Part shown: one piece after another, positions 8,858 through 33,641 of the stretch
Layout of the letters: every line of letters starts with the position of its first letter
How positions within the stretch are numbered: the stretch's first letter is position 1
Virus record (IMG/VR): IMGVR_UViG_3300033512_000345
Location: 1-64,000 of that record
Reading direction: 5' to 3' (one strand)
DNA from: a virus
DNA: 64,000 bases
Notes under the pieces: model-generated
What the model was told of the DNA's origin: nothing
The model's database searches: none
Seen by the model: the letters and a program-made list of their open reading frames with translations, nothing else
Made by a program: the position numbers and the translations under genes

Positions 8858-9187
8858 TTAGCCGTTATACGGAATCTCATCCATGCTGATCTGTCCCTCA
8901 ATTTGATCCAGGTGTCCTCCGGTTGATGCAATCAGGTCGTCGGTCAACTGAGGTCCCTCAGCAGGAACAAACTGAACCAGCGTCTCGGCTGTGCTGGACT
9001 CGGAATAGGAAATGGGAAACTCCGTTGCCGGATCAGACTCTGTGTGAACGAGTTGTTCCATCAGGAAGAGCATGCCGTCCCGGCGGCTTGTGATGAATCC
9101 CTGCTGTATAAACAGATCCAGGATTTCATTGGGCTCGAGGTCGACGATGTTGGTCGTGGACTGGATGAATTCTTTGATGTTGCTCAT
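8858..9187 (-). CDS. hypothetical acidic protein
   Basis: 109 aa. The N-terminal EILDLF resembles a clamp-binding pentapeptide. Confidence 0.65.
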   Translation of the reverse strand: MSNIKEFIQSTTNIVDLEPNEILDLFIQQGFITSRRDGMLFLMEQLVHTESDPATEFPISYSESSTAETLVQFVPAEGPQLTDDLIASTGGHLDQIEGQISMDEIPYNG

Positions 9188-9903
9188 GATTCGTACCTCC
9201 CAATCGTTTGATCATATTTGCATTCGGTATTTTCACAGCAGCGGTGTTCGACGCCATCTTTGATGATGACGACTGTTTCTCCGCCACACTTGGCACAAGG
9301 ATGGTCAAAAACGAAGAACTCCATGGGGGCTGACCATGCCATCCCCCATTTGAACAAAGACGTCGTATTCAAACATTTGGGACAGAACCCATCGATCTCT
9401 GTCGTCCCTTCAAGTTGAACCGTTTCGGCGGCGATGTCGTCTTTGTGGTCTTCATAACGAAACCCACTAATGGACAATCCTTTTCTTGACCTGGAAATGG
9501 AACGGTCTCCGTCTAACTCCCGGAAGACGACATCCCCATTGACGCTCATGACCTCGGATTGTCCACAAGTGGGACAACGAAAGGCCGTGAACCTCATGGG
9601 TTTTCCGTCTACGGTTTTGGCTAGAAGCTCTCCGTTTTCATCTTTCCAAGACAGGGTTTCCGTCTTCTTGTCGAAGTTCGGCAGTCGTTGGCGGATGATT
9701 TCCCGTTCAGGTTCAGGTTCGATTTCTCGAGGAGGAAACTGAAGGGTCTTGTTCGTCGGAGCCTTGACATGGATTTCTTCTTGTTCGGAAGCCATTTCAA
9801 AGTCATCGATCATGAAGGCAGGGCCTGACTCTGAAGAGAAAGGCCGAATACCGGAAGCAAAACCGATGAATCCATGTTCATTGTAAATAGGAAATCTAGT
9901 CAT
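9184..9903 (-). CDS. hypothetical multi-zinc-ribbon protein
   Basis: 239 aa with CPTCGQ, CPKC and CAKCGG...C.N..C. RBS AGGAGGA. Confidence 0.7.
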   Translation of the reverse strand: MTRFPIYNEHGFIGFASGIRPFSSESGPAFMIDDFEMASEQEEIHVKAPTNKTLQFPPREIEPEPEREIIRQRLPNFDKKTETLSWKDENGELLAKTVDGKPMRFTAFRCPTCGQSEVMSVNGDVVFRELDGDRSISRSRKGLSISGFRYEDHKDDIAAETVQLEGTTEIDGFCPKCLNTTSLFKWGMAWSAPMEFFVFDHPCAKCGGETVVIIKDGVEHRCCENTECKYDQTIGRYES

Positions 9904-9921
9904 AAGATTCCTCCTGGAATG

Positions 9922-9951
9922 AACAGGGGAAGGAAAATCCCTTCCCCTGTT
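9922..9951 (-). terminator. 12-bp hairpin; a terminator-like U-tract is present only for the plus-strand sense
   Basis: AACAGGGGAAGG-AAAATC-CCTTCCCCTGTT. On the coding (minus) strand no U-tract follows, so it may be a stabiliser or a block to antisense transcription. Confidence 0.4.
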
Positions 9952-10056
9952 TCTTTACTTAGGCTTTTTCTTTCCGGGTTTCTTTTTTGTTCCACATTTA
10001 GCCACTATAGCGTTCCTCCTTGAATAAATATCAGATTGTTGTCCGAAAATATCCTA

Positions 10057-10737
10057 TCAAAGCGTTGAGTCTTCGTCTATGGTAGTTTTCTGCGAAGCAG
10101 CCATAACCTTAGATACATCTCCATGAAGAACGACCACATAGGCTTTGTCTGCAACAGCCAACAGGTTGTCGTTGTGTGTCACCATGATGGTTTGACGACC
10201 AAATGACACGCAGAGCTGTTTGACGAACTCTGCGAATTTCACAGATGCTGCTTCGGATATCATCTTGCCTGGTTCATCCATGCCCAGAGACCCTTTGATG
10301 GCTGGATCATTGAAGAGTTCCAGATAGGCAAACCGAAGTGTGGCAGCAATGATGTCGACGAGACCTCCCCCGCATTCTTCTTTCGGATCCTGACGGGAAG
10401 GTTTGCCGTTGATGGTGCTGACAAGGTAAAAGGTTGCGTCGGGCTTTCCTCGAAGCTCCTGCAGTTCGATTTCGAAAGTGTAAGCCACTCCCGTAACGTA
10501 CTGCAAAGCATCTGTCACGATTTGCTCGAGATACACCTTGGCTCTTGAACGGGCATCTTTTGCTGTTTCCTGCAGGAGAAAGCTCGTCTTAGTCTTGAGG
10601 TCAATGCCGGTATCCAGGTTCGCTATGGCCACCAATTTGGCGTCATGCTCCCTCTGGATGTTCTGTTTGATTCCCTCTCGCATGTTGTACCGACTCCAAC
10701 CTTCGTTGAGTCGGGTTCTGTAGATGGAACAATTCAT
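10057..10737 (-). CDS. Rad50/SbcC-like ATPase, C-terminal half only
   Basis: 226 aa. Signature-like CGGGLVD, Walker B SLGMDEPG and H-loop IMVTHN, with no Walker A. RBS AAGGAGGAG. Confidence 0.75.
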   Translation of the reverse strand: MNCSIYRTRLNEGWSRYNMREGIKQNIQREHDAKLVAIANLDTGIDLKTKTSFLLQETAKDARSRAKVYLEQIVTDALQYVTGVAYTFEIELQELRGKPDATFYLVSTINGKPSRQDPKEECGGGLVDIIAATLRFAYLELFNDPAIKGSLGMDEPGKMISEAASVKFAEFVKQLCVSFGRQTIMVTHNDNLLAVADKAYVVVLHGDVSKVMAASQKTTIDEDSTL

Positions 10738-10749
10738 GTTTACTCCTCC

Positions 10750-11190
10750 TTAAGGCCTCTTCGTCGGAGGAGGCATGTCGTCGAACAGAGAGTCCAACGG
10801 GTCTGTGGTGGACGTCTGTACTGGGATTTCAATGTCGTCGGGGACAGAGAACTCTGCCGAAGGCACTTCAACCTCGAGAACGGCATCTACCTTCTGCGGG
10901 AAGATCTTGTCGAGGTGGACGGTTCCATTGTCATCGGGAAGGGCTGCATCGAGAAGAGCCAGGGCTTTGTCCATTTCCACCTGACGGTCCAGAATGTATT
11001 GCGGAAGCTTGTCAGGATCAAGTCCTGCTGCCTTGATCTTGGCAATCAGTTCGGCTTCGGACTTCTCGAGTTGTTCCAGTTTTGCCTCGCCCTTGATTCG
11101 AATGTCTCGAACCTCTTGTGCCTTGGCTTTTCTGGCCTTGATGTCGGTTTCGTATTTGCTGATCTTGTCGAATACAGGTTCCTGGCTCAT
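10750..11190 (-). CDS. coiled-coil protein between the two Rad50 halves
   Basis: Start trimmed to ATG at 11190 (GGAAGGAGG RBS, ATGA overlap with the upstream stop). About 55 aa of heptad-like KAKAQEVRDIRIKGEAKLEQLEKSEAELIAKIK, then an acidic tail containing DPLDSLF. Confidence 0.65.
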   Translation of the reverse strand: MSQEPVFDKISKYETDIKARKAKAQEVRDIRIKGEAKLEQLEKSEAELIAKIKAAGLDPDKLPQYILDRQVEMDKALALLDAALPDDNGTVHLDKIFPQKVDAVLEVEVPSAEFSVPDDIEIPVQTSTTDPLDSLFDDMPPPTKRP

Positions 11191-13532
11191 ACGGCCTCCT
11201 TCCCGATCATGTGATCGATGTGCTGCTCTGTCAGGTTGTTTCCGCAGGTAGGGCAGGTTCCAATGGAAACCAGCCAATCTGCGAACTCCTTTTGAGATGT
11301 GACAAGTGCTTTATCGCACTGTGCTTCCAGCACAATGGAGTTCTCAACGGCATTGAATGCCAGTTGACGACTGGATTGTGCCAGACGAAGTTGTTTCAGG
11401 TACCCAACTGAAGACTCGAGAGCTTGTCGTTTCTGTTCGGTCTGGACAAGCAATTGCTCGACCCCCTCGTAATCGATCTTGATGATCTTTTCCTGGACGT
11501 CTTTGATCTCCAAAAGAATGGAGCGTCTTTTATGCTGAAAAGAGAATGCTTCAGCAATCTTGACCTGAGTCTTTTCAAGAGACTCAATGAGACGATTCAA
11601 GAAGGCTTCATTGGGGATGTACTGGAGAGTCTCAATGGCCCGGGCTTTTGCTGACTCAATGCGAGCCTTTTGGTCGATGGTCTTCTTGATGAAGTTCATA
11701 AACCGAACGTCTCTCTCGAGCTGTTCCAACTGAGGAAGCTGAAGATCATCTCTTGGCATGGCAGAGAGCTTCGATCGAATCTCCTGCTTTTGTCTTTGGG
11801 TTTCCTGAAGAGAAGTCAAAAGCCATGATGCGGTTTCGATCTTTTCCTGAAGCTTCTCTGTGGCCTCGAGCAAAAGCTGCATGCGATCGAGAGCTAGTTT
11901 GATCTTGGGCTGGTCGTCATAGAATGCCAGTTCCTTGACCTTCTGCTCCTTTTCAGATTCGAGTCGGGTCTTGTCTTTGGAGTCGGCTTTTAGAGATCGA
12001 TTGACCTCCTGGATGGCGTCATCTACAACCTGAACCCCGATCAGACGTCCGATGGCCGCGGCACGCTGGCTTCCCATTGCTCCAATAAGGAACGGAGGGT
12101 CCAACTGTTCTGCCATGGAAAGGTTCTGTTCGAAGTCCTTGGCCAGATAGACTTTGGGTTTTTGGTGAACGTTCGTGACTTCAATGGGAACTTCGTTTCC
12201 AAAGCCTTTGAAGTCTTGGACGACACCATTTGGATCAATGACTTTGTATGTTCCTGCAGAAGATCGATCTCTTTCCCGGACGATAGACCATCCGGAAGAA
12301 TAAGTCACACGAACCTTGGCTCGAGCAGAACCAGTACGGATGATGGAATCTCCACGAGGGTCGTTGTACTCCGCCCAGCGGATGGCTCGAAGGATGGCTG
12401 TCTTGCCGTGGTTGGATTCTCCAATCAAGGCATTGAGTCCTTGTTGAAACTGAATGACAGAATGAGAATGAGACTGAAAGTTCTCAATTTCAACCTCTGT
12501 AATCCAGACATGGATAGGAGATTCAACATATCCTTTGAGAGTTGGACAGGAATTCTGCACATTCTGTTCCGCTGCCGTAATGGCATTTTGAGCCTCCGTC
12601 AGAATAGAAACAGGCAACCCGGTGTCCTGTACGATTTTGGCCATCAACTGATGAATGGTCATCGGACCGGCGGCGGGGCCTCCGGATTGCAACTGTGCCT
12701 TGAAGTTGATCAATTGTTGCTGCTGGGCTGCCTGTTGAGCCTTGGATGCAAAATCAAAGATCTCTGTGGCCGGCCTTGCTGACTTCAGAGGACGTTCCGT
12801 AATCTGGACGTTTGTGATGTCAGAAGCGTCAATGATCAAGACTTTGGGAACCGTGGTCTTGTTTGCCTCGCTACGATCCAGTCTCATCAGGGAGCCGGGA
12901 TTCATGAACGTAACGCCATTGATGGTGTGGGTCGTCCATCCGGGGTGATAGTGAGCCCCAAGGACGAGGTCTGCCAATGTATGAACATCTTTGGTGACAG
13001 CATGTGGAACCGTGGGAAGATAAGGCCTCTCCATGAGCATGTCGTGAATGATCTGAATCTGGTAGTCACAATGGGCGTCCCGAGGTCTCAGATAGTCAAA
13101 AGTACTTGTCAGAGAGTGTTCTTCTCCAATGACCTGAAGAAAAGCCGATTTCCCCTTGATGTCTTCATACTCAAGATCAAGAGTGTCCCCTCCTCGAGTG
13201 AGAAGTTGGACGACGCCTGTCGCATGAAGATTTCCAAGAGAAGTTTGATCGATCGTATCCAGGTTGTAGCCGTAGAGATCATGAGAACCCGGCACCACAT
13301 AAATGGGCACATCCCAGTCTCTCATGACGCGAGCCATCAAATTGGAATACTTCAGAGAAATCTTGGCAACATTGAACAAGTCTCCGCCGATAAGGACGTG
13401 ATTGATCTTTTGTTCCTGAATAATCCGTCCGATTTCTTGAAACTTTCGATAGGCTGCCACGGCATAGTTATCCAGACGGCCAATCGGGTTCTTAGCTGTC
13501 AAATGGGGATCGGTAAAATAGAGTAATTTCAT
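11187..13532 (-). CDS. Mre11/SbcD nuclease fused to the Rad50/SbcC N-terminal ATPase half, coiled coil and zinc hook
   Basis: 781 aa. Phosphoesterase motifs FTDPHL, GGDLF, GSHD and GAHYH; then Walker A GESNHGKT; about 300 aa of coiled coil; CPTCGN 20 aa from the C-terminus. Confidence 0.85.
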   Translation of the reverse strand: MKLLYFTDPHLTAKNPIGRLDNYAVAAYRKFQEIGRIIQEQKINHVLIGGDLFNVAKISLKYSNLMARVMRDWDVPIYVVPGSHDLYGYNLDTIDQTSLGNLHATGVVQLLTRGGDTLDLEYEDIKGKSAFLQVIGEEHSLTSTFDYLRPRDAHCDYQIQIIHDMLMERPYLPTVPHAVTKDVHTLADLVLGAHYHPGWTTHTINGVTFMNPGSLMRLDRSEANKTTVPKVLIIDASDITNVQITERPLKSARPATEIFDFASKAQQAAQQQQLINFKAQLQSGGPAAGPMTIHQLMAKIVQDTGLPVSILTEAQNAITAAEQNVQNSCPTLKGYVESPIHVWITEVEIENFQSHSHSVIQFQQGLNALIGESNHGKTAILRAIRWAEYNDPRGDSIIRTGSARAKVRVTYSSGWSIVRERDRSSAGTYKVIDPNGVVQDFKGFGNEVPIEVTNVHQKPKVYLAKDFEQNLSMAEQLDPPFLIGAMGSQRAAAIGRLIGVQVVDDAIQEVNRSLKADSKDKTRLESEKEQKVKELAFYDDQPKIKLALDRMQLLLEATEKLQEKIETASWLLTSLQETQRQKQEIRSKLSAMPRDDLQLPQLEQLERDVRFMNFIKKTIDQKARIESAKARAIETLQYIPNEAFLNRLIESLEKTQVKIAEAFSFQHKRRSILLEIKDVQEKIIKIDYEGVEQLLVQTEQKRQALESSVGYLKQLRLAQSSRQLAFNAVENSIVLEAQCDKALVTSQKEFADWLVSIGTCPTCGNNLTEQHIDHMIGKEAV

Positions 13533-13562
13533 AGCAACAACTCCAGTCTGTGGAAACAGAGG

Positions 13563-13895
13563 CTATGCCGGTAAAACCGGAACGCCCAATTCATCCACAA
13601 GGGTGAGAACAGATTGAACTTTTACAGGATATTCTTCTACGTCTGCAAAGGTAAAAGAAGCTCCCTTGATCGGATTGCAGGTGACGCCAGTAACACGAGC
13701 GGACTCTTTGAAGATGCCGTCTTCGTAGATTTTGATCTGGCGACCGATATAGTTGGCCATCAAAGACAAGTCAATTTTCAACGCTTCCTTGTCCCATTCA
13801 GCCATGACGATTCCGTTGACGATGATTTGATTGACGTGATAGGCTCCATCTCCCGGAGTTTGCTCATCTGTAAGCAAGTGAACTTCAATTTTCAT
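13563..13895 (-). CDS. hypothetical protein, possible tandem paralogue of 13885..14190
   Basis: Start trimmed to ATG at 13895 (AGGAGA RBS). IIVNGIVMAEWDKEALKIDL...YIG aligns loosely with IIINNRTVAKYNKALELTDL...HIG. Confidence 0.6.
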   Translation of the reverse strand: MKIEVHLLTDEQTPGDGAYHVNQIIVNGIVMAEWDKEALKIDLSLMANYIGRQIKIYEDGIFKESARVTGVTCNPIKGASFTFADVEEYPVKVQSVLTLVDELGVPVLPA

Positions 13896-14190
13896 TGGTT
13901 GTCTCCTGTGGAACCGGGCCAAGATTCATGACATGCCCAATGGTTCCGTCTGCTTGTGTGACGCGATCAATCTTTGTCAGAATGGCCTTGTGGCTATACT
14001 GCTTTTTATCAAAGACATAGATCGTTTCTCCGATGTGATCCTCGAGACAGGTCAGGTCAGTCAACTCAAGGGCTTTGTTGTACTTGGCTACAGTTCTGTT
14101 GTTGATAATAATATTGTCAATAATGGTTTGCGGTCGAAGGAAACCTTTTTCGTCTTTGATCTTGATAGTTTTCTTATGCATTTCGATCAC
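13885..14190 (-). CDS. hypothetical protein
   Basis: GTG start 8 nt after AGGAGG. 101 aa. Confidence 0.6.
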   Translation of the reverse strand: MIEMHKKTIKIKDEKGFLRPQTIIDNIIINNRTVAKYNKALELTDLTCLEDHIGETIYVFDKKQYSHKAILTKIDRVTQADGTIGHVMNLGPVPQETTNEN

Positions 14191-14223
14191 AGCATTGACC
14201 TCCTGTATGGCATTATCCCTATT

Positions 14224-14232
14224 ATTGTATCA
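14224..14232 (-). promoter_or_regulatory. candidate extended -10 element TGATACAAT
   Basis: It sits just downstream of the dut terminator and upstream of the 14190 start, next to the inverted repeat ATTGTT-N2-AACAAT. Confidence 0.35.
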
Positions 14233-14260
14233 TATTGTTACAACAATGACGAGATTATAG

Positions 14261-14292
14261 ACAAAAGAATGGGGAGGATTTCTCCTCCCCAT
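14261..14292 (-). terminator. rho-independent terminator after dut
   Basis: ATGGGGAGGA-GAAA-TCCTCCCCAT (10 bp), followed by UCUUUUGU on the minus strand. Confidence 0.7.
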
Positions 14293-14302
14293 GTTTCTGG
14301 AT

Positions 14303-14794
14303 TTAATGCGTACCAGAGTGACCCCATCCATTAGCTCCTCGATTTGATGGTCTGAGTTCTGGAACCCATTGCCAAGTTACTTCGGCATAAGGAGAAACAA
14401 CCATTTGTGCTACACGAGTACGGGCCTTGAGTTTCTTAGGAAGAAAACCAATGCGATACATTAGCACACTGACAACTCCACGATAGTTGCAATCGATGGT
14501 TCCTTCGATAACAACATTTCCCTTGCTCGACTCGCCAGAACGACCAACGACTCGACCAAAGAATCCTTCCGGAAGTTCAATCATGGCATTGGTCTGAACC
14601 TTTGTTACACGGAATGGCCAGATCCATTTGTCCTCTGTGATATACAGATCGTATCCAGCATCCCCTTCGGAATGTTTGAAAACGGAGTCAAAACGAGAAA
14701 CCCCTTCTGGCCCTGGCATATTTTCCGTGAACCAGGCTTGTATGTTACGAGGGAAAAAATTCTCTTGAACGGCGTAATCGTGTCTTTTCATCAT
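14303..14794 (-). CDS. dut: trimeric dUTPase
   Basis: Motifs GDAGYDLY, GRSGES, GTIDCNYRG, RVAQMV and C-terminal RGANGWGHSG. Confidence 0.9.
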   Translation of the reverse strand: MMKRHDYAVQENFFPRNIQAWFTENMPGPEGVSRFDSVFKHSEGDAGYDLYITEDKWIWPFRVTKVQTNAMIELPEGFFGRVVGRSGESSKGNVVIEGTIDCNYRGVVSVLMYRIGFLPKKLKARTRVAQMVVSPYAEVTWQWVPELRPSNRGANGWGHSGTH

Positions 14795-15339: not shown

Positions 15340-15351
15340 GAATGGATCCTC

Positions 15352-16098: not shown

Positions 16099-16110
16099 AT
16101 CCTTTGTGTT

Positions 16111-16767: not shown

Positions 16768-16836
16768 GATGGCACCTCCTTCATTATTATACCATTCGGC
16801 TTGGAGTAGCGTCTATGACGCACTCTTCCGTTGTGG

Positions 16837-17466: not shown

Positions 17467-17475
17467 TCAAACCTC

Positions 17476-19368: not shown

Positions 19369-19377
19369 GGCGTCCTC

Positions 19378-20667: not shown

Positions 20668-20669
20668 GC

Positions 20670-22938: not shown

Positions 22939-22960
22939 TGAATCACTTCCTTTCTTATAT

Positions 22961-23605: not shown

Positions 23606-23614
23606 GAAGGCCTC

Positions 23615-23911: not shown

Positions 23912-23938
23912 TGCGGGCCTCCTTACGGCATATTGTTG

Positions 23939-24436
23939 TCAGAAAGGAATGTCGTCCTCGTCGATGTTGTAGAAGCCGTCTCCGGATGCAGCGGTAGGGG
24001 AGTTTTGAGCCGCAGGAGCACTTTGACGGGCTCCGCCGCCCTGGTTTCCACCGGCACTTTGGCCGCCGTTCTGATTGCCAGAACTGTCAGCCGGGACGAA
24101 CCCTACGTTGTTGACAAAGAAGATGCTGCCGTAGGTCGTCTGGTTGGTGTTGGGGTCTGTCTTGGACCATGTCTGGTACTCGGCATCAATGATGATGGGT
24201 TTGCCTTTGGTGAACCATTGGCAGATCATCTTGGCCGTTTCTCCATAGGCCACAAAATTGGGGAACGACGCCGTCTGAATGGACTTGTCGCCAGCCTTTA
24301 CGGCTGCCCTTTGTTCCTTGGAGAGAGACTTGTCAACAGCGAGGTTGAACATGACCTTTGGGTTTTGAGCCTTGTTGTCCAACACCGGATCCTTCACGAA
24401 CCGGCCGATGAACTTGCAGTTGTTCATACTGTTCAT
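23939..24436 (-). CDS. ssb: single-stranded DNA-binding protein
   Basis: OB-fold N-terminus (CKFIGRFVKDPVL), Gly/Gln/Asn-rich linker and canonical tip DEDDIPF. Confidence 0.92.
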   Translation of the reverse strand: MNSMNNCKFIGRFVKDPVLDNKAQNPKVMFNLAVDKSLSKEQRAAVKAGDKSIQTASFPNFVAYGETAKMICQWFTKGKPIIIDAEYQTWSKTDPNTNQTTYGSIFFVNNVGFVPADSSGNQNGGQSAGGNQGGGARQSAPAAQNSPTAASGDGFYNIDEDDIPF

Positions 24437-24462
24437 GGTAATTGACCTCCTTCAGTCATTTA

Positions 24463-24489
24463 TCTGAAACGGTGCGTTCCGTTTTCAGA
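24463..24489 (-). terminator. hairpin between the 24492 gene and ssb
   Basis: UCUGAAAACGG-AACGCA-CCGUUUCAGA on the minus strand, with one bulged A in the 5' arm and a weak U-tract. Confidence 0.35.
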
Positions 24490-24491
24490 AC

Positions 24492-24767
24492 TTAGAAATC
24501 GAGGGGATTTTCCCCTCCGTAGAGCAGGTAGGTAGCAATGGCATCTGCCAAACAGGACGAAGCAAGCCATGCCATTTCATGAGAAACTTTGTGCTTCTCA
24601 ATGACATTGGCCATGTCGTGGAACAGAGCCAACATGAGTTCTTCATTGGCCTTGATCCGGGTTTTGAAGTCTGCTTCGTTCTCTCCGGGCAATGCTGCCA
24701 CCAACTGGGTCTGAAATTTGAGAAGACGTTCCTCGAGAGGAGCCGACTCGAATGGATTGGTTGCCAT
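24492..24767 (-). CDS. hypothetical protein ending in NPLDF
   Basis: Start trimmed to ATG at 24767 (AGGAGAACAA). 91 aa. Confidence 0.6.
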   Translation of the reverse strand: MATNPFESAPLEERLLKFQTQLVAALPGENEADFKTRIKANEELMLALFHDMANVIEKHKVSHEMAWLASSCLADAIATYLLYGGENPLDF

Positions 24768-24781
24768 TTGTTCTCCTGTTC

Positions 24782-27700
24782 TCAAGCCTGAGAGAACAAA
24801 AGATCCAGCGGATTGGCGACGCCAGGCATCATGTCTTCATCCAACTGTTCCGAGTCCCGTACGGGAAGATCAAGAGCAGCAGGAGATGATGATTTGGTTG
24901 AAGCCGATCTGACGATCTTTCGTATTTTCCAGGCAAGAATGTTGTCCCATTGTTTATTGACAGAACCGTCGACGATGACGATGTCGCCTTGGACCAGGTA
25001 GTTTTTGTACTTCTCATAGGTTTTGGTCTGAGCCACCACGTTGAGAAGTTTTCCGCCTTTGACTTCCATCTTCATGCTGGCATATTCATTGCCGGCATTG
25101 TTCTTTTTGACCGTGACAGTCTTGAGAATACCGGCAAGACAAATGTCCTCTCCGTCGTTGGCATCATTCGGATCCGAATAAGGGAACGGATCCAGAGGGT
25201 GCTCTGAGACATAGAGTCCCATCAGGTCAAGTTCGAAAGCCAGCTTGACCTTGCGGACGTATTGTTTCGGGTCGTATGGAGTAAAGTCTTTTTCCTTGCG
25301 GATAGTTCCCAGATAATGATTGAGCATCTTGTACCGGTTCTGTTCGAACTGATCAAAGGCTCCTGCCTGAATCATGGCTGTCTCATTGGATTTGGTCAAT
25401 GGATTGTTCATGAGTTTTCCTGTCTCTGGGTTTATTTCTCTTGGAATAGCATGACAACGATTATAGAAGTCATCAAAGCTAACAAATGGGCGAAGCTTTT
25501 TGATTAGTTCGACCGTTCGTTCTCCTACCCCTTTGACAGCCTGCAATCCGTACCGGATAGCCTTGGTTCCGTCTGGCAGAAGTTCAATGGAGAATGATAC
25601 ATCTGATTTGTTGATGTCCGGAGGTAGGATCTGAATACCCATCTTTTTGGCGTCCGAGATTGTCGCAACAATCTTTTCTGTCTTGTCGTGAATCATCAGA
25701 CAAGCGACCGTCCATTCAACCGGATGATATTTCTTGAGCCAAGCCGTCTTGTATGCAATGGCAGCATAGGCTCCAGAATGGGCTTTATTGAAACAGTACT
25801 TAGCGAAGTCGGCCATGGATGCAAAAATCTTCTTCCCCATGGCCTCGTCGTATCCTCTGGAGATCAGTCCCTTGCAATATTTCGACGGCTTGTCGACCAT
25901 GCAGTGGGAATCCATGTCATACTGTTTCCCATAGAGGAACTCGGCCTCAATGGCGGGTATTTCCTTGATTTTCTTTTTGCCCAATACCTTACGAATCCGC
26001 AAGTCTGCGTTCCCGAGAGAATATCCGGCTAGAATTTGCCCAATGGCCATCAATTGTTCCTGATACCACATACAACCTTTGGTGGGAGCCAAGACATCAT
26101 CGATATCCGGATGAACCATGGTATTGATTCCGGACTTCTTGTTTTCGATGTAGAGATCCACCATTGATTTTCCTGTATCTTTATCCTTGGACAGCGGACC
26201 CGGTCTGTTGCCGGCATTTACGTCAGTGAGTTCGTCAAAGGAACTGACGTCCATGTCTCGAATCATTCGGGTAGCATTGGAAGAGGCCATTTGAAAGACG
26301 TCTGTCGTTAGGCCGTCCCGGAGCATTTTGTAGACTTCCGGGTCGTCAAAGTCTTCCGAGTCAAACCAGGCTTCATCCAGTCCGGTCATGTCCATGGCGT
26401 AGCGAATCTGTGAAAGCGTCGCCAACCCCAGTGCGTCAATCTTCAGTGCGTTGAAGTAATCCAGGTCTTCCATGGATATCTGTACCAATGGAAGAACGGC
26501 GGTGTCGGATCCGAAAGTCAAAGGCAGGTTTTGAGACAAGGGCTTTCCGGAAACAACAACCCCGCCCGCATGAATGCCTGTGGCAGACACACAGCCGGCC
26601 AGATGTGTCACGACGTCAAAGACCATGGGATACTTCCGGAAGGTCTCCTCAAGAAGAGCGGCAGCCCGTTGTGCTGTGTTTACGTCCCGCACGCCTATCT
26701 TGGCAATGAATTCTTCCGGATTATTGACGATCTCCATGATGTAATCATAGGAGGCCTCTTTTCCGTCAAAGACATCAGGTAAGGCCCGGGTAATGTCGTT
26801 GGCTTCATTGAAGTCCAAACCAAGTACCCGCATCGCTCCCTTGATAAGAGATTTTAGCTTAAGCTTGGTAAATGTGACAATTTGGGCGACGTATTCGGAT
26901 CCGTACTTTGTTAGCAGATATCCGATAGCTCGCGGGCGATCGAGTTTGGAAATGTCCGTATCAACGTCCGGGAATTCGATTCGTTCCGGATTCAAGAAAC
27001 GCTCAAAGAAATATCCGTTCTTGACGGGATCGATCGTAGTGATCTTGAGAACATAGGAGACCAGAGAGCCAGCAGCGGAACCTCTTCCTTTGCCAATCAG
27101 AATGCCATTCTTACGGCACCATTCAAACCAATCCCAAAGGATGAGGAAATATCCAGCAAACCCCATGGAACAGATAATCTCCATCTCATAGTTCAATCGT
27201 TTCATTCGTGGAAGGATATCGTTCCATTGTTTATCCTTAGCCATGACCAGAAACGCGTCCATGGAAAGCTTGTGCAGATATGTGTTCTCTGTATAGCCTG
27301 GAGGGCACGGAAATAATGGCATTAGACCTCTGGAATCCGTTGGTTTAGGGGAAACCTGAATGGAGTCTGCAATTTTTCCTGTATTTGTGATAGCAGAGGT
27401 CGGAATCCCGTATTGGGCACAGTACAACTTCATTTCATCTTCTGTTCGAAAATGGGCGTCTACGTTGAATGGATTGCGGTAACCCATTTGGATGAGAATG
27501 TCGTGATAGGCCTTGTCGGAGTGTTCAAGATAATGAAAGTCCGACGTGATGACCAATGGAATGCCGGTTTCCTGATGAATCCGAACAAGAGCCTCATTGA
27601 CAACAAGTTGTTCCGGAATGGTATGAGGTTGAACCTCCAGATAGAATTCCTCAAAGGCATGGGCATAAAGCTGAGCCTTAGCTTTTGCATCGTTATAGCG

Positions 27701-28171
27701 TCCCTCTTGAATCAGCTTCGGGATGATTCCCCCGATGCAGGCAGAAAGAACGGTCAAGCCCTTGGCGTGCTTAAACAGCATGGCTTCTTCAGTTCGAGGA
27801 TAGTCTTTGGTCTTGCCGGATATTTTGTTGAAACCTGCATCAGATGCGAGCTGATACAGATTGACCAGTCCTTCATTGGTTCTAGCCAGAACAACAATAT
27901 GGTATCGCCCAGTCGGATCTGTAGATCGGTCTTCGGTTGAATAAAATTCACAACCTAGAATCGGCTTCACTGGATTGGTTGAATGTTCCTTGTTCCATTC
28001 ATCGGAAGCTCTTAGGAACTTGACCATGGAATACATGTTTCCATGTTCCGTTACGGCAACCGCTTTCATACCAAGAGAGCCGGCCTTTTTGATGACGTCT
28101 TCAACTGGAACCATGGAGTCATTTCCGCTGTAAACGGTATGACCGTGGAGATGAACAAACTCACTACTCAT
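24782..28171 (-). CDS. dnaE: DNA polymerase III alpha subunit (DnaE type)
   Basis: 1129 aa. PHP domain start HLHGHTVYS, polymerase core and OB domain. C-terminus is NPLDLLFSQA. Confidence 0.95.
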   Translation of the reverse strand: MSSEFVHLHGHTVYSGNDSMVPVEDVIKKAGSLGMKAVAVTEHGNMYSMVKFLRASDEWNKEHSTNPVKPILGCEFYSTEDRSTDPTGRYHIVVLARTNEGLVNLYQLASDAGFNKISGKTKDYPRTEEAMLFKHAKGLTVLSACIGGIIPKLIQEGRYNDAKAKAQLYAHAFEEFYLEVQPHTIPEQLVVNEALVRIHQETGIPLVITSDFHYLEHSDKAYHDILIQMGYRNPFNVDAHFRTEDEMKLYCAQYGIPTSAITNTGKIADSIQVSPKPTDSRGLMPLFPCPPGYTENTYLHKLSMDAFLVMAKDKQWNDILPRMKRLNYEMEIICSMGFAGYFLILWDWFEWCRKNGILIGKGRGSAAGSLVSYVLKITTIDPVKNGYFFERFLNPERIEFPDVDTDISKLDRPRAIGYLLTKYGSEYVAQIVTFTKLKLKSLIKGAMRVLGLDFNEANDITRALPDVFDGKEASYDYIMEIVNNPEEFIAKIGVRDVNTAQRAAALLEETFRKYPMVFDVVTHLAGCVSATGIHAGGVVVSGKPLSQNLPLTFGSDTAVLPLVQISMEDLDYFNALKIDALGLATLSQIRYAMDMTGLDEAWFDSEDFDDPEVYKMLRDGLTTDVFQMASSNATRMIRDMDVSSFDELTDVNAGNRPGPLSKDKDTGKSMVDLYIENKKSGINTMVHPDIDDVLAPTKGCMWYQEQLMAIGQILAGYSLGNADLRIRKVLGKKKIKEIPAIEAEFLYGKQYDMDSHCMVDKPSKYCKGLISRGYDEAMGKKIFASMADFAKYCFNKAHSGAYAAIAYKTAWLKKYHPVEWTVACLMIHDKTEKIVATISDAKKMGIQILPPDINKSDVSFSIELLPDGTKAIRYGLQAVKGVGERTVELIKKLRPFVSFDDFYNRCHAIPREINPETGKLMNNPLTKSNETAMIQAGAFDQFEQNRYKMLNHYLGTIRKEKDFTPYDPKQYVRKVKLAFELDLMGLYVSEHPLDPFPYSDPNDANDGEDICLAGILKTVTVKKNNAGNEYASMKMEVKGGKLLNVVAQTKTYEKYKNYLVQGDIVIVDGSVNKQWDNILAWKIRKIVRSASTKSSSPAALDLPVRDSEQLDEDMMPGVANPLDLLFSQA

Positions 28172-28191
28172 TAGATCCCTCCCGTCCGTCT

Positions 28192-28221
28192 ATTATATCA
28201 TGAAAGGCGGGGTTTTTGTAA
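28192..28221 (-). promoter_or_regulatory. candidate promoter for dnaE
   Basis: Minus strand reads TTACAA, 18 nt, TGATATAAT. It lies about 20 nt upstream of the GGGAGGG RBS, and the -35 lies inside the preceding terminator hairpin. Confidence 0.5.
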
Positions 28222-28243
28222 CATTTCTGAACAAAAACCCCGC
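28207..28243 (-). terminator. 11-bp hairpin terminator overlapping the dnaE promoter -35
   Basis: GCGGGGUUUUU-loop-AAAAACCCCGC followed by CUUUCA. Confidence 0.55.
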
Positions 28244-28277
28244 TTTCAGACGGCACTTTTTGTAATGGACTGACGGA

Positions 28278-29099
28278 TTAGAAGGGAACATCGTTGTAAA
28301 TTGCTTCCTCTTCATCCGAACTTTCGCCCGAAAGGGCGATACTATTTAATCGATTCTGGATAGATTTCATCATGGAAATGACTTTCTCCGGAGGAAGTTT
28401 TACCCCTTTTGGAAGTTCCTCAAGAGTCCGGATATAAACATCAATTAAATCTTGAATTTTATGAGTCTTGATCCAAACATCTTCTTCAGAATCTTGTTCT
28501 GTTGTTTCCAAATGTTCGTCGTCTGATAGGTAGAAATAGACGGCTTGATTCTTTTCAACACGTATAGACCATAGATCTCCTTGATCGTCTCCTTGGGCAA
28601 AAACTTCTCCTGTGCAATTGGATCCTGAAGGAAGAATAACATAGTTTAATAAAAACTCAAGCCATGGTTTGGCCTTTGTCAAATCTCCTTGTTCACTTAA
28701 GGTCAATTCAAGACCATCAGGACTGATAGAATAAGGAGCAACACAAAGAGGAACAAGAGAAGGGGTTGTTGTTTTGTTTGGATCTAGACGATACGCCCCA
28801 ACAGATTCCAGTTCCTGATTTGTAATTCCTATTGGCAACGCGTAAAGTTCTCCATTTGGACCAAACGGATGATCTATGGAAATATCATCCCAAGGATTAA
28901 ATCCGTTTGGAATCCGAGAGCTGAGATCAATCTTAGTAATCTCTCTTAGAAGCGGATGAACAGGACAATACCGAACATCAAGTTTCTGATTTGGCTTTGG
29001 TTGATGCAGGCGATGTAGTTGATGAAGAGTCTCCAGTACATGAGGGTTTTTGGGTTTCTTCTGGCTGGTATGGAGAAACCGATCCAACCATTCGGTCAT
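28278..29099 (-). CDS. hypothetical protein with SSB-tip-like C-terminus (SDEEEAIYNDVPF)
   Basis: Only the part downstream of about 29099 reads like protein. ATG at 29099 has no RBS and lies inside 28978..29775 (+1 frame), so the start is unresolved. Confidence 0.5.
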   Translation of the reverse strand: MTEWLDRFLHTSQKKPKNPHVLETLHQLHRLHQPKPNQKLDVRYCPVHPLLREITKIDLSSRIPNGFNPWDDISIDHPFGPNGELYALPIGITNQELESVGAYRLDPNKTTTPSLVPLCVAPYSISPDGLELTLSEQGDLTKAKPWLEFLLNYVILPSGSNCTGEVFAQGDDQGDLWSIRVEKNQAVYFYLSDDEHLETTEQDSEEDVWIKTHKIQDLIDVYIRTLEELPKGVKLPPEKVISMMKSIQNRLNSIALSGESSDEEEAIYNDVPF

Positions 29100-29775
29100 C
29101 TGTGGAGACAGGGGCGGTGAGATTGAGAAATTCCCCCAGGTTTTCGTTCGATAGCTCATGAGTCGTCTCCTTTTCAACAGGCAGCGTATCATGGATGTCC
29201 TTGACAGGGTTCCCCTGGTTGCTGGACTCGAGATACTTGTCTGCCTTGGCGTTCTGTTTGAGCATTTCGTCCGGTTCCAAGGTCTCACCGGTATGATTAT
29301 ATGACTGGGCACGCAGGATATCGACTGTGACATTGTGAACGAAAACACCCTCTGATTTGAGCTGACTGAATGTCTTTTGGTCAATCAGATCTGTCACGGT
29401 ATGTCCTTTATGGTTGACCCAATAGGCATATCGAACGGTAGTTTCCCCGGAAACGGTCAGGTCTCTATGGTAAGCATACCGGGAGATGGACATGATCTCA
29501 TCCTTCCAGATGCGACGGACCGGAGGATTTCCTGGATTATACGGAGAATTGTGGTTCACTGAAAGGATGAACTCTCTTCCTTCAACATCAGCCAAGATTC
29601 TTCCGGCTGACATCATTTCCAGGAGAGTCGTTCTTTCGTCCGAATTCTGCAGGTCAATACGAATCACATTCGGATTCACAGCAGGGGTCGGTTTGACCGC
29701 CTTGGTCTTGGCTTCTGCCTTTGCAAGTTCTGCAGGAGCCAGGATACTATCCAATGGATTGTCAACGTTTGTCAT
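28978..29775 (-). CDS. hypothetical protein with N-terminal NPLDSIL
   Basis: 265 aa. RBS AAGGAGGA. The last 40 codons overlap the next frame. Confidence 0.6.
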   Translation of the reverse strand: MTNVDNPLDSILAPAELAKAEAKTKAVKPTPAVNPNVIRIDLQNSDERTTLLEMMSAGRILADVEGREFILSVNHNSPYNPGNPPVRRIWKDEIMSISRYAYHRDLTVSGETTVRYAYWVNHKGHTVTDLIDQKTFSQLKSEGVFVHNVTVDILRAQSYNHTGETLEPDEMLKQNAKADKYLESSNQGNPVKDIHDTLPVEKETTHELSNENLGEFLNLTAPVSTDDRMVGSVSPYQPEETQKPSCTGDSSSTTSPASTKAKSET

Positions 29776-29788
29776 GATGAGATCCTCC

Positions 29789-30976
29789 TTATGATTTCTG
29801 AATGGCCGGCGTCATGTATTGGATGACGGCATCGGCCGGAAGGTGTTCGATGATCATAGCTCCGGGGCCAATCAGCTTGAATGTGACGGTGGACTCTCCT
29901 GACATCTTCAAACCGTCCAGCAAGTGAGAGACACGGAAGGAGCCATTCAGCTCGGTAGAGCTGGTTGTAGGCTGAAAGAAGAGTTTTTCCTGGACCATCC
30001 CGTTCTTGGACTTCATGTCAAAAGACAGGAGCGAATTCGCACTGTCCGAAACAAGTTCAACGGTTTGACTGGAGTTGTCCGATAAGGCCGACGCCATTTG
30101 GAGGAGGGAAGTAAACCGGGAGCGGCTAACGCTTCCTTCGAAAGAGAATGTCTGAGGAACCAAGGTTTTGCAGTTTGGGAAGCTGCCATTGGTTTTACGG
30201 AAGCCTACACAGAAGGCTCCATGAACAAGTTGAATTTCATGGGGTTCTTCGAAAACTTCAATCATGCCGGCAGAAGCCCCTGCAAACTTGGCGAAGCGGG
30301 ACAGCTTGGCGTGATCAAGGAAGAAAGTCCCCGAAGAGGTGACGTTCGTCATGATGGCAGGGAATGAAGCCTCATGAATCAACATCCGACGATCCTTGGA
30401 GTCAATGGCCTCAAACAGAAAACCCTTGGCCGGATCAATCGTTACCTGCAGGCAATTGAATGTCTGATAGGTATCATTGGGCTTGATGACCTGGTTGGCC
30501 AGATCCACGGCTTGCTTGAAGAGATTCCCCGGAATGTCCATGAGATAATTGGACGAAGGGGTTCCCAGAACAGGGAATGTTGTCGGATCCAGACCGCGGA
30601 TCACGGTGGCCAAGTTCGAGGCCGTATTAAGCTTGGATCCCAAGGGTTTGATCAGGACGGACAAAGGAGAGACCTCTTCCAAGAGGACATCTTTGGCGTC
30701 CAAGGCTTCCAGGACGGGAATCAGACGGTCAAATTCAATCAGCGGAAAGTATCCGATTCCGCTATTGGAAACGATGGTATGAGTGGGCAGCGTGCTCGTG
30801 GCCCATCCATCAAGAATGTTGACGGCATGAAGACGCACTTCTATCTGACTTCCAGTCGGATTGCAGGTTTCAATCAGAAGACAGCGTTCGGCCATACTGG
30901 TCTTCCCTGCTCCTGCATAGTTGCGAAGGGTCTTCAGAAATCCGAGAAGATACTGATGATTCAAACAAAGATTCAT
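29789..30976 (-). CDS. dnaN: probable DNA polymerase III beta sliding clamp
   Basis: 395 aa, the length of a three-domain clamp. The N-terminus (L..L......A.....IL..CLLIE......I.L.A) follows the DnaN pattern. The gene lies in the replisome gene block. Confidence 0.6.
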   Translation of the reverse strand: MNLCLNHQYLLGFLKTLRNYAGAGKTSMAERCLLIETCNPTGSQIEVRLHAVNILDGWATSTLPTHTIVSNSGIGYFPLIEFDRLIPVLEALDAKDVLLEEVSPLSVLIKPLGSKLNTASNLATVIRGLDPTTFPVLGTPSSNYLMDIPGNLFKQAVDLANQVIKPNDTYQTFNCLQVTIDPAKGFLFEAIDSKDRRMLIHEASFPAIMTNVTSSGTFFLDHAKLSRFAKFAGASAGMIEVFEEPHEIQLVHGAFCVGFRKTNGSFPNCKTLVPQTFSFEGSVSRSRFTSLLQMASALSDNSSQTVELVSDSANSLLSFDMKSKNGMVQEKLFFQPTTSSTELNGSFRVSHLLDGLKMSGESTVTFKLIGPGAMIIEHLPADAVIQYMTPAIQKS

Positions 30977-31713
30977 GGTTGCACCATTCCTTTCAATTGG
31001 CCTAGTAGTTTTCTTTCTTCACTTAAAGACAGGTGAAGCCTGACATCTTTAGCAACAGAGGTTGCATTGCACCTCGGACAGACTAGTTTTTGATGGCTCC
31101 CGTTGCGAATCAGATCAAGCAGATCGAGCCCTTCTTCGCTGACAAGGTTCCAGGCGTAAATGGAAGCCTTGGTGCCACAGTTGGGACACTTCAAAATGGA
31201 ATGAAAGTCTTGTAGAGAGGGCATCTTTGTGGCTCCGACATAAGCCTCCAAAGGAGTGGGGTTCAGGATGTTGTTCATGATATAAATCATTTCCTGCACG
31301 TCTTGTGTTTTCATTTGAGGGATATTTTTTAACAAGTTCATGCTAACAACCGGTTGGAAATCTCTGTCCAATTCCATCAAGAAGATATTGTCTTCAAGCT
31401 GTCCTGGACGATAATAACGATCTATGGCGGGGAAGGGGCCGGAAGCATTTGAGCGAAGATTGAATGGGATCTTAAGTTCACGAAGGGCTCCTGCAAAATG
31501 AGGAGGCAATCCATCTGGACAATCCTCTATATTGAGAGTGATCAAACCGTCTTTGGTGGTGGCACGAATCAAATACCCGTCCAGGTTTCGGTTTATGTCG
31601 TCACTAAGAGCCTGCTTCAAAAGTTTGTAGGCCTTGGTCTTTGGATTGAGAAAAGGCTCTTCCAATGTAACAAAACATACATCGGTCTTATATCCTTCTG
31701 GGATGGCAGCCAT
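30973..31713 (-). CDS. hypothetical protein with C-terminal zinc ribbon
   Basis: 246 aa with CPNCGT...CPRC. ATGA overlap with the clamp gene. Confidence 0.7.
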   Translation of the reverse strand: MAAIPEGYKTDVCFVTLEEPFLNPKTKAYKLLKQALSDDINRNLDGYLIRATTKDGLITLNIEDCPDGLPPHFAGALRELKIPFNLRSNASGPFPAIDRYYRPGQLEDNIFLMELDRDFQPVVSMNLLKNIPQMKTQDVQEMIYIMNNILNPTPLEAYVGATKMPSLQDFHSILKCPNCGTKASIYAWNLVSEEGLDLLDLIRNGSHQKLVCPRCNATSVAKDVRLHLSLSEERKLLGQLKGMVQP

Positions 31714-31761
31714 GGATTCACCTCCTTATGGGCATGGCCCGGAATCTTCAAAATTAGGGGA

Positions 31762-31788
31762 ACAAAAAGAGGGACCCGAAGGCCCCTC
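31762..31788 (-). terminator. rho-independent terminator after groES
   Basis: GAGGGGCC-UUCG-GGUCCCUC followed by UUUUUGUU. Confidence 0.7.
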
Positions 31789-31806
31789 CTTTTCAATCCT
31801 GAGGAA

Positions 31807-32094
31807 TCAAAGAACACAGAGAATGTCTCGTTCGTTCAGAACAATGAAAGTCTCTCCGTCCACTTCAATGGGAGATCCGGCAAAGTGTGCGTAAATGACT
31901 TCGTCTCCGACAGAAACTTGCATGGGACAAAGAGTTCCGTCTTCAAAACGAGCTCCCTGACCTACGAGAATAACTTTGCCACGATTGGTCGCTTCTTTTT
32001 CCCGACCAGGAATCACGATACCGGATTGGGTTTTCTCTTCGAGCTTGTGTTCCCTGACGAGACAACGAGCTCCGAGTACTTTGAGGTTTGGCAT
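31807..32094 (-). CDS. groES: GroES-type co-chaperonin
   Basis: 95 aa. It aligns along its length with bacterial GroES (K.LG.R.LV......EKT.SGIV.P......G.V..VG.G.....G......V.VGD.V.........I..DG....L.E.DIL.V). Confidence 0.88.
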   Translation of the reverse strand: MPNLKVLGARCLVREHKLEEKTQSGIVIPGREKEATNRGKVILVGQGARFEDGTLCPMQVSVGDEVIYAHFAGSPIEVDGETFIVLNERDILCVL

Positions 32095-32139
32095 ATTTGA
32101 TGGCCTCCTTGATGCAAGATGTTACAATTATAGCACAAT

Positions 32140-32829
32140 TCAAGGATGGAAAGCGAGCTCACAAGCCTTTCGAAGAACATTCCAAAGTTCATTCTTGTAG
32201 GCGGGATACAAGGGCGAAGGAGCTTTCAGCAGTTCCGTCGGATCTTTTCCAAACATGATCTGATAAGAGAAGTCTCCAATGTTGTATGTCGTGGGATGAG
32301 TCGGGATATCTTTGAGAAGGTAATCTGGATCAAAACCCAGATGATTCTGGGCCAGACGAGAATTTTCTTCTCCGAGCACCAGAAGCACTTTGGGTTGAAT
32401 CACCTGCAGCTCCCGTCCGAAATGCAAAGCAAAACAGATGTCTCCATACATAACAGACTTTGGGGACTTTGACATGGAGCACTTCCGGACGTTGGTCCGG
32501 TAAATCTGATCCATGGGATGGGGAAGATAAGACAGCAAGGCACTGAGAATCAAGTCTCCAGCCTTGTCCATGTCATCATCCCTGACGTAGGGTCCTCTGA
32601 GAATCATGAGAGGAGAAGAAGGAGAACCCATGGGGAGACGAATGTCTACCCCATGGATCATTGTGTCCGGACAAGAAGCACAGGACTTCCTGGTAATCAG
32701 GGTCTGCATCATCTCTCGATACCGGTCTTCTCTCTCGGACTGATTCATCACAGTTTCGAACAGGGGCAGGGACAAGCCCGCCCCATTTGTCATGATGTCT
32801 TGCAATCTCTCTCGAACAGATGAATCCAT
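32140..32829 (-). CDS. uracil-DNA glycosylase family-4-like protein with a degenerate active-site motif
   Basis: CASCP..., PLMILRGPYVRDDD (in place of the IVGEGPGEEED-type motif), AGDLILSAL, IYRTNVRKC and IQPKVLLVLGEE. Confidence 0.6.
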   Translation of the reverse strand: MDSSVRERLQDIMTNGAGLSLPLFETVMNQSEREDRYREMMQTLITRKSCASCPDTMIHGVDIRLPMGSPSSPLMILRGPYVRDDDMDKAGDLILSALLSYLPHPMDQIYRTNVRKCSMSKSPKSVMYGDICFALHFGRELQVIQPKVLLVLGEENSRLAQNHLGFDPDYLLKDIPTHPTTYNIGDFSYQIMFGKDPTELLKAPSPLYPAYKNELWNVLRKACELAFHP

Positions 32830-32840
32830 TGTGGTCCTCC

Positions 32841-33641
32841 TTAGAAAGGTTCGTCATCAGGAATCCCTGTAGGAGGAGTCAAAAGCTCATCCAGAGGGTT
32901 GCCGGAAGCCAAGGCGGACAAAGCTTCTTCTTTCATTTGTTCCAGGGTCTGGTCTGCAGCGTCCGGAGCAAAGGGGTCTTCGATCATGACATTGTTGGTC
33001 GCCATGACGGGCTCCGGAGCTTCATCGAGAACGGGAACCCCGAGCTCTTCTTCTGGAACGTCAGGAGTCGGATCCGGAAGAGTGACAGCGTTCGGGTCGG
33101 CAGCCATAGCTGCAGCGGCGGCATTCAGACGACGGGTCTCGGCAGCACGCTTGGCAGACTCGGAGCGTTTGGCCTTGGCCATCTCTTCTTCCGTCATGCC
33201 GGCAGCCTGAGCTTCGTCTTCGCGAAGAAGGGCCTGACCAATGATTTCTTCAGACTTAGCAATCGTTGCGGCGATCGCTGTGGTCTTCGGTCCGGAGCCT
33301 TGTTCCATCTTGATGATCATGCGGATGAGTTCGGCTTGGGACAGGTTCATCAAGTCAGGGCGAGCTTTTGCTGTGACACAGGTCACGCAGATGCCGTCTT
33401 CGTTGAGGTCAGCTGGTACGTTCAACGTTCCGCATTCCATACAGGCGACAACATCTACAGGCTGAGTCTCTGCTGTCAAGCTGGTACGACAACCAACACA
33501 AACCGTGGCCTCCCAACTATGAACGACGCCTTCCTTGACGACGACCGGCACATCGCTTCCTTCTTCGAAGTTGAACTGTGCCTTCTTCGTGATGTATCCA
33601 GCAAACATGGTACTGGACTTACAGATTGAACAAACTTTCAT
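32841..33641 (-). CDS. zinc-ribbon protein with an Ala/Glu/Pro-rich disordered C-terminal half ending in NPLDELLTPPTGIPDDEPF
   Basis: Start trimmed to ATG at 33641 (AAAGGAAGG). CSIC...CVGC...CMECG...CVTC. Confidence 0.7.
   Translation of the reverse strand: MKVCSICKSSTMFAGYITKKAQFNFEEGSDVPVVVKEGVVHSWEATVCVGCRTSLTAETQPVDVVACMECGTLNVPADLNEDGICVTCVTAKARPDLMNLSQAELIRMIIKMEQGSGPKTTAIAATIAKSEEIIGQALLREDEAQAAGMTEEEMAKAKRSESAKRAAETRRLNAAAAAMAADPNAVTLPDPTPDVPEEELGVPVLDEAPEPVMATNNVMIEDPFAPDAADQTLEQMKEEALSALASGNPLDELLTPPTGIPDDEPF

Follow-up and report, generated by a model that had tools for sequence, protein, structure and literature searches.

A short peptide of the form NPLDxLF recurs on the flexible ends of the polymerase DnaE and of at least three other DNA-handling proteins encoded in a stretch of 64,000 nucleotides from an uncultured phage (IMG/VR record IMGVR_UViG_3300033512_000345, positions 1 to 64,000; this whole stretch is called the window in the following). 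Its recurrence at protein termini is genuine and not a matter of chance, and the comparison with relatives identifies it, at the level of sequence, as a real and selected short linear motif of DnaE and at least three further replication and recombination proteins. We consider it probable (roughly 0.6) that the motif is a lineage-specific docking peptide for the beta sliding clamp encoded by the phage itself, on which it would build a "toolbelt" of replication and recombination factors; the cleft of the clamp as the receptor of the peptide is what we infer from the evidence laid out below.

Written as a class, [N/D]-P-[L/I/V]-D-x-[L/I]-[F/L/M], the motif occupies five sites (Table 1), all of them no more than 20 residues away from a protein terminus. 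The tripeptide PLD occurs eight times in the proteome, and in five of these cases Asn or Asp precedes it and one or two hydrophobic residues come after it. The original prediction had placed the motif at the termini of at least six proteins. Five of its peptides, those of DnaE, the 91-residue protein and the products of 10750..11190, 32841..33641 and 28978..29775, are real and could be located exactly, all on the minus strand, but the sixth (NEILDLFIQ in the 8858..9187 product) departs from the pattern and aligns to non-motif sequence in its orthologues, and was rejected as a copy. An open reading frame (ORF) on the plus strand (10645..11214) that starts with MLPLDVLFDSL, the one PLD string outside the coding frames that resembles the motif, was judged to be a chance occurrence because it is antisense and all 78 of the 78 predicted window genes lie on the minus strand. 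A looser candidate of the same docking class is seen in the 59904..60659 product (minus strand), which ends in SDENESDSNSLFLN, an acidic tail with an S-L-F anchor; the only orthologue available is an identical copy in L100.

Enrichment was calculated over the 78 genes of the window (18,265 amino acids). The regular expression [NDE]PLD.{0,1}[LI][LF], which had been put forward with the original prediction for a scan against shuffled controls, clearly exceeds chance: it matches four times, always within 25 residues of a terminus, compared to 0.027 matches overall and 0.004 terminal matches in shuffled sequences, and none of 1000 shuffles reached the observed count. The shorter pattern [ND]PLD gives five matches, all five terminal, where 0.53 are expected overall and 0.106 at termini. 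Of all 4-mers in terminal windows NPLD recurs most often, with four copies, a number that shuffles reached in 43 of 2000 trials when the look-elsewhere effect was controlled for. PLD by itself does not reach significance once corrected for all tripeptides, and the strength of the observation therefore comes from the longer pattern and from its replication. Inspection of the listed PLD occurrences in the five remaining reading frames gave no fit to the regular expression. All five sites fall into the replication and recombination module (window 5.6-33.7 kb), which holds 49% of the residues (p = 0.027).

Replication was obtained with L007, a relative whose DnaE is 68% identical to that of the window and for which the pattern had been defined beforehand. 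In this phage [ND]P[LIV]D occurs five times, four times at a terminus where 0.093 would be expected (0 of 2000 shuffles), and the terminal sites are located on DnaE, the zinc-ribbon orthologue, the clamp-adjacent protein and RecA (Table 1). Orthologues of four of the five carriers of the window (DnaE, the zinc-ribbon protein, the clamp-adjacent protein and the Rad50 middle piece) have an equivalent motif, which in these proteins forms a short conserved island amid variable sequence. Clade-wide, the DnaE tails hold a hydrophobic-anchored peptide at their extreme end, with orthologues terminating in NPLDTLF (68% identity), DPLKSLF (54%), NPLADIFG, DPLEALFN, KDIDLF, VEFGSIF and ILKTMFGM. Judged from such sets, the motif co-varies by lineage: DnaE and the clamp neighbor of the window have NPLDLLF and NPLDSIL, L007 has NPLDTLF, NPVDDLF, NPIDNLV and NPVDEIM, and in L101 a DnaE ending in KDIDLF is accompanied by two other proteins with (DL)n or DIDL N-termini.

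A further context is that of DnaE itself. Its domains follow the order PHP, polymerase core, fingers, HhH and OB, after which a polar tail of about 43 residues brings the chain to its end. The bacterial DnaEs in our alignment have an internal clamp-binding motif (CBM; GQIGFF, GQFSLF), and exactly there the DnaEs of all clamp-encoding phages have a deletion; they possess a polar tail of 35-53 residues past the OB fold with the motif at its end, and in all relatives that have such a tail a phage clamp gene lies directly upstream of dnaE. The more distant phage DnaEs in IMG/VR for the most part stop at the OB fold or close to it and have no tail of this kind, and a clamp gene could not be detected within 10 kb of them. 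Among clamp-less phages, the DnaE of L025 keeps an internal GQMELF, and those of L017, L024 and L037 have GSLFD tails. The motif at the DnaE C-terminus that had been noticed in the window is hence conserved across relatives as the tail end, with the homologous internal motif deleted, and its proposed location on disordered termini agrees with a DnaE tail extending 43 residues past the OB fold and with the low predicted local distance difference test (pLDDT) values of the N-terminus of the clamp neighbor. The dnaE gene is broken up, apparently by mobile elements, in several relatives (L002, L014, L028 and L102): the interruption in L102, which is Bacillus phage 0305phi8-36, is annotated as a mobile intron, and dnaE of the other three reads as separate ORFs with intervening ORFs. 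HNH genes are located just upstream of dnaE in many relatives.

The proposed hub, the product of 29789..30976, had been called a clamp in the original prediction, and its full-length homology to the DnaN family identifies it as a genuine, though divergent and fast-evolving, DnaN-type beta clamp. A profile of six syntenic phage clamps matched solved beta clamps in the PDB over their full length (7evp_A, E = 2.7e-38; the alignment covers positions 1-377 of 379 in the profile and residues 2-374 of 377 in the solved clamp), and the clamp orthologues match the Pfam families DNA_pol3_beta, beta_2 and beta_3. Taken alone, the window clamp found 4tr6 in a phmmer search of the PDB (E = 1.4e-5) and phrog_947, annotated as "processivity factor" (6.9e-8); it stayed below the Pfam cut-off (PF02768, 24.5 bits vs. 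27), and a homologue search with the clamp sequence alone returned only the clamp itself. Its identity to the clamp of L007 (7196..8350) is 28%, compared to 68% for DnaE, 73% each for RecA and GroES and 65% for DUF6744 between the same two phages. When the phage clamps were mapped on E. coli beta, using a sequence identical to 1mmi, only L10, R176 and P242 (E. coli numbering) were invariant among 11 phage clamps, and D173 was 91% conserved. Based on established structures, we take R176 and P242 to belong to subsite 1 of the cleft. The clamp of L009 (7562..8923) has a C-terminal extension of about 60 residues that ends in QEDVDDLLNDVDLTDSDVPA, a motif-like acidic-LL peptide which could occupy the clamp's own cleft.

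Apart from the polymerase, the best-conserved carrier is the clamp-adjacent protein, in which the N-terminal motif is followed by a Lys/Glu/Ala-rich linker, a conserved core of about 150 residues and a Ser/Thr-rich low-complexity C-terminal tail. In an AlphaFold2 model the core has pLDDT values of 75-92, and the N-terminus has values from below 50 to 63 and continues into the low-complexity linker. The family comprises 22 relatives among 1.84 billion representatives. Of 20 family representatives, 11 have an N-terminal acidic-LF motif against 1.08 expected (0 of 5000), with examples such as NPVDDLF, DIDLFDD, DANLFDD, EENLFDF, DEELFEE and DEDLFAD, and in internal windows of the family only 1 of 151 matches. 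Several members without the N-terminal motif have an acidic-hydrophobic peptide at the C-terminus instead. No match of the clamp-adjacent protein was found in Pfam or PHROG, among PDB sequences or PDB folds, or by tblastn in deposited phages; the one match in BFVD, A7KV47, is taken to be gp38 of 0305phi8-36 from its length of 228 amino acids and its accession series.

On the zinc-ribbon protein, NPLDELL is followed by an SSB-like tip that ends in DDEPF. Orthologues were found in L007, L001, L005, L013, L014 and L019, and in the clade with genomes of about 210 kb GFxMFD stands where the window has NPLDELL. In these IMG/VR relatives (L001, L005, L013, L014 and L019) the zinc-ribbon protein and SSB share a bipartite tail, GFxMFD followed by a terminal (E/S)PF. 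Rad50 is split into three ORFs across 10057..13532 (minus strand), and the motif is located on the middle piece. The corresponding piece of L088, whose neighboring Mre11-Rad50N is 48% identical to that of the window, ends in ETGDDLFAELEKSDSNMPF and keeps the LF element at the equivalent position; relatives of Mre11-Rad50N in IMG/VR were found with an alignment query, a single-protein query having found nothing. A second terminal peptide, -PF, ends 5 of the 78 proteins, and PF is the top C-terminal dipeptide (shuffles reach five in 36 of 5000): SSB ends in DEDDIPF, the zinc-ribbon protein in PDDEPF, a MoxR-type ATPase in STGMPF and the two others in YNDVPF and NDEEAPF. The zinc-ribbon protein and the L088 Rad50 piece have both peptides, the NPLD-type and -PF, in tandem. 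The SSB-tip-like ends on non-SSB proteins suggest SSB-tail mimicry or a common SSB-tail receptor.

Table 1. Features of the window and terminal motif sites of the relative L007 (coordinates are window positions).
Feature	Coordinates	Strand	Length (aa)	Remarks
DnaE-type Pol III alpha	24782..28171	-	1129	Pfam PHP, DNA_pol3_alpha, finger, HHH_6
DnaE C-terminus		-		reads GVANPLDLLFSQA, including ANPLDLLFSQA
DnaE motif NPLDLLF	24794..24814	-		10 residues from C-terminus
91-residue protein	24492..24767	-	91	downstream of dnaE
91-residue protein, NPLDF	24495..24509	-		extreme C-terminus (GGENPLDF); weak member
Beta sliding clamp	29789..30976	-	395	DnaN-type by profile; proposed hub
Clamp-adjacent protein	28978..29775	-	265	adjoins clamp gene; fold without PDB match
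Clamp-adjacent protein motif NPLDSIL	29740..29760	-		residues 6-12; N-terminus MTNVDNPLDSILAP
Zinc-ribbon protein	32841..33641	-	266	long acidic tail
Zinc-ribbon protein motif NPLDELL	32880..32900	-		19 residues from C-terminus; tail ends in GNPLDELLTPPTGIPDDEPF
Metallophos (Mre11-like) + Rad50 N-terminal ATPase	11187..13532	-		ends just after CPTC zinc hook
Rad50 middle piece	10750..11190	-	146	coiled coil and acidic tail; C-terminus TTDPLDSLFDDMPPPTKRP, in short TDPLDSLFDDMPPPTKRP
Rad50 middle piece motif DPLDSLF	10783..10803	-		17 residues from C-terminus
Rad50 C-terminal ATPase half	10057..10737	-		phrog_15167
Proteins ending in -PF	23939..24436, 28278..28838, 32841..33641, 41465..42904, 60890..61537	-
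L007 DnaE				ends in ANPLDTLF
L007 zinc-ribbon orthologue				ends in NNPIDNLVAPPPTLADDEPF
L007 clamp-adjacent protein				N-terminus contains AELNPVDDLFAEFE
L007 RecA				ends in GNPVDEIM

In the mechanism that we propose, the motif on disordered termini would tether DnaE and several accessory proteins to the phage clamp. The terminal hydrophobic pair would insert into the hydrophobic cleft that domains II and III of the clamp form between them, with the conserved Asn taking the role of the canonical Gln, and the two clefts of the clamp dimer would be shared or exchanged among clients in the manner of a toolbelt. The predicted clients are DnaE, the Mre11-Rad50 subunit, the zinc-ribbon/acidic protein with its SSB-like tip and the clamp-adjacent protein, to which RecA would be added in the relative L007. 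Several observations weigh against such clamp docking. The strict consensus of bacterial CBMs, QL[SD]LF or QLxLxL, fits none of the five sites (NPLDLLF, NPLDSIL, DPLDSLF, NPLDELL, NPLDF), the span from Asn to Phe is one to two residues longer than in a canonical CBM, and two sites end in L-L or I-L and not in L-F. Taken together, the 23 cleft positions show no higher conservation than the remainder of the clamp (Mann-Whitney p = 0.83), the C-terminal strand aligning poorly, and the clamp folded without an alignment reached a pLDDT of 35, so that this model was not used. No clamp loader was recognized in the 64-kb window. Moreover, NPLDF is absent from the L007 orthologue of the 91-residue protein, which ends in HILGSDEA, and from more distant orthologues, and some orthologues of the other carriers have lost or replaced the motif (the Rad50 piece of the 210-kb clade, gp38 of 0305phi8-36). 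The conservation that had been expected from the original prediction is therefore found for four carriers and fails for the 91-residue protein and the 8858..9187 product. The more general idea of a phage-specific clamp interactome gains from the identity of the clamp, the flexible termini, the DnaE tail and the conservation, but it has to accommodate the lack of any strict-consensus site and the weakness or error of two of the six sites listed at the outset. Since no site fits QL[SD]LF or QLxLxL, we suggest that the motif works like a CBM without being a canonical member of that class; the failure of the strict consensus bars strict membership and not the mode of action, because the published consensus is tolerant, DnaE3 polymerases conserving only xxxLF (10.1101/2025.03.10.642433).

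Alternatively, the motif might be a real docking peptide for another hub, such as SSB, RecA, a helicase or primase, the MoxR/VWA pair or a scaffold. This is unlikely in our view, although the module has another terminal motif in -PF, two carriers hold both motifs in tandem, and the 210-kb clade has the positionally equivalent GFxMFD on SSB itself. DnaE needs contact to a clamp and has no other candidate motif for it, the best-conserved non-polymerase carrier adjoins the clamp gene, and RecA, which carries the motif in L007, looks like a client and not like a hub. Even less likely is that the peptide docks on the beta clamp of the host, which would then be borrowed or whose own clients would be competed off. 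The motif family does share the L-F anchor with bacterial CBMs (PMC6511837), and some clamp-less phage DnaEs have the host-like tails or internal motifs described above (GSLFD in L017, L024 and L037; GQMELF in L025), but in every relative with a tail a phage clamp is encoded directly upstream of dnaE, and the canonical consensus fits no site. The drift of the motif by lineage (NPLDxLF, DIDLF, FGSIF, KxIFG) alongside a fast-evolving phage clamp also counts against the host clamp, because the host beta cleft is too conserved a target.

A chance product of the composition of acidic, Leu-rich disordered tails appears very improbable. Acidic tails are indeed common here, PLD as a tripeptide is not significant after correction, the recurrence of the exact 4-mer has a p of only about 0.02 after look-elsewhere correction, and two of the six sites first proposed fail conservation; yet longer patterns were not reached in any of 1000 shuffles, the predefined motif replicated in L007 (0 of 2000), the N-termini of the clamp-neighbor family exceed expectation (11 of 20 vs. 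1.08; 0 of 5000) and the LF element keeps its position in the L088 Rad50 piece. That the peptide is the by-product of a DNA-level signal (promoter, terminator or repeat) at gene ends can practically be dismissed: all sites do lie within about 60 nucleotides of a gene boundary, but the synonymous codons vary among the five sites (Pro CCG/CCC/CCG/CCT/CCA; Leu CTG/CTC/TTG/CTG/TTG), which share no extended nucleotide identity, which refutes an origin as a DNA repeat and indicates selection on the protein, and orthologous sites retain the peptide class and not the DNA.

Docking on the phage clamp can be compared with several known systems. Bacterial CBMs are carried by Pol III alpha, PolC, Pol II, IV and V, Hda, MutS and MutL, delta and RecB. 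They are short, variable and usually located in flexible termini (PMC6511837), and that of Hda is N-terminal, at residues 6-11 (PMC5397184). Like these, the phage motif is a short peptide on a flexible terminus with an amide residue upstream of Asp or Ser and a terminal Leu-Phe anchor, its carriers are the replicative polymerase and factors of repair and nuclease function, and the cognate clamp would be a DnaN homologue. It differs from them in having Asn-Pro for Gln-Leu and a span of seven residues instead of 5-6, in its location on the C-terminal tail of DnaE where bacterial DnaEs have it internally, and in its putative receptor, a rapidly diverging clamp encoded by the phage. A further parallel is found in T4, where the clamp epitopes of gp43, gp33 and gp55 are of a common acidic-hydrophobic type and interchangeable (PMC2988020). 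As with gp45 of T4 and RB69, a phage clamp is accompanied by near-identical acidic-hydrophobic terminal peptides on several proteins with variable flexible linkers (PMC2988020), client binding in our case being predicted. However, gp45 is a PCNA-like trimer and the window clamp is of the DnaN type, the T4 clients include transcription factors whereas those predicted here are replication and recombination proteins, and the T4 clamp loader is known (gp44/62) whereas none was identified in the window. For the Rad50 piece there are precedents in the binding of RecB to the beta clamp (10.1101/2025.08.20.671105) and of the archaeal Mre11-Rad50 of Pyrococcus furiosus to PCNA (PMC6009593), in that an end-processing nuclease complex has a clamp-docking peptide, as predicted here; in our case, however, Rad50 is split and the peptide resides on a coiled-coil fragment that is a protein of its own.

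The phage from which the window derives has a genome of about 200 kb (the window DnaE lies on a contig of 199,804 bp). Its replication and recombination module encodes a NAD-dependent ligase, DnaG primase, the three-part split Mre11-Rad50, a UvrD-type helicase, RecA, SSB, DnaE, the beta clamp, GroES and a UDG-like protein. The GroES/Cpn10 homologue (31807..32094, minus strand) lies between the UDG-like gene and the clamp, a position that is kept in all relatives and in 0305phi8-36 (gp41). None of the deposited phages is close, with DnaE identities of at most 33%. By gene order the nearest cultured relative is 0305phi8-36 (EF583821), with which the window shares the order UDG - GroES - beta clamp (gp39) - gp38 - DnaE (gp240) and the split Mre11/Rad50 layout (gp8, gp7, gp5), and whose DnaE tail includes DPVADLF. 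It is nevertheless very distant, as neither the clamp nor the clamp-adjacent protein of the window had a tblastn match among the deposited phages, and its gp38 is without the N-terminal motif but has an acidic-aromatic tail at the C-terminus instead. Outside the module, a MoxR-type AAA+ ATPase (41465..42904, minus strand) pairs with a VWA protein (39510..41396, minus strand). The ATPase is the only AAA+ protein found in the window, and it was rejected as a clamp loader, its weak match to phrog_168 reflecting generic AAA+ similarity and its match to bpMoxR having a value of 8.9e-49. In the VWA protein the peptide at the C-terminus is conserved in all clades (AHQIFNGV, AHQLFGSV, NKSIFGAL, NKQLFGSI) and the N-terminus is of the acidic-LF type (NLEDFLDFL; DDELFDDDLFDD in L013), and the DnaE tail of L005 and L013, ILK[ST][IM]FG[IM], resembles the VWA tail. 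Possibly, the VWA protein is another client of the proposed hub, or else of a separate one.

One can extend clamp docking to a private clamp code, in which clamp and peptide diverge together and insulate the phage replisome from the clamp interactome of the host, in which the clamp-adjacent family represents a new clamp opener, loader or regulator, and in which the split Mre11-Rad50 and the RecA of relatives are recruited; this we regard as speculative and rather doubtful. If clamp docking itself is true, the uncultured jumbo-phage lineage would possess an equivalent of the T4 gp45 toolbelt that is built on a beta clamp, and a non-canonical clamp-binding sequence, N-P-[LIV]-D-x-L-F, would be defined. 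The split Rad50 fragment, the zinc-ribbon protein with its SSB-like tip and the family adjoining the clamp gene would then be new clamp clients. Annotation would gain as well, since searches with QL[SD]LF would miss these sites and the DnaE tails would pass for meaningless disorder. The lineage would also offer a natural system for the co-evolution of a hub protein and its peptide code.

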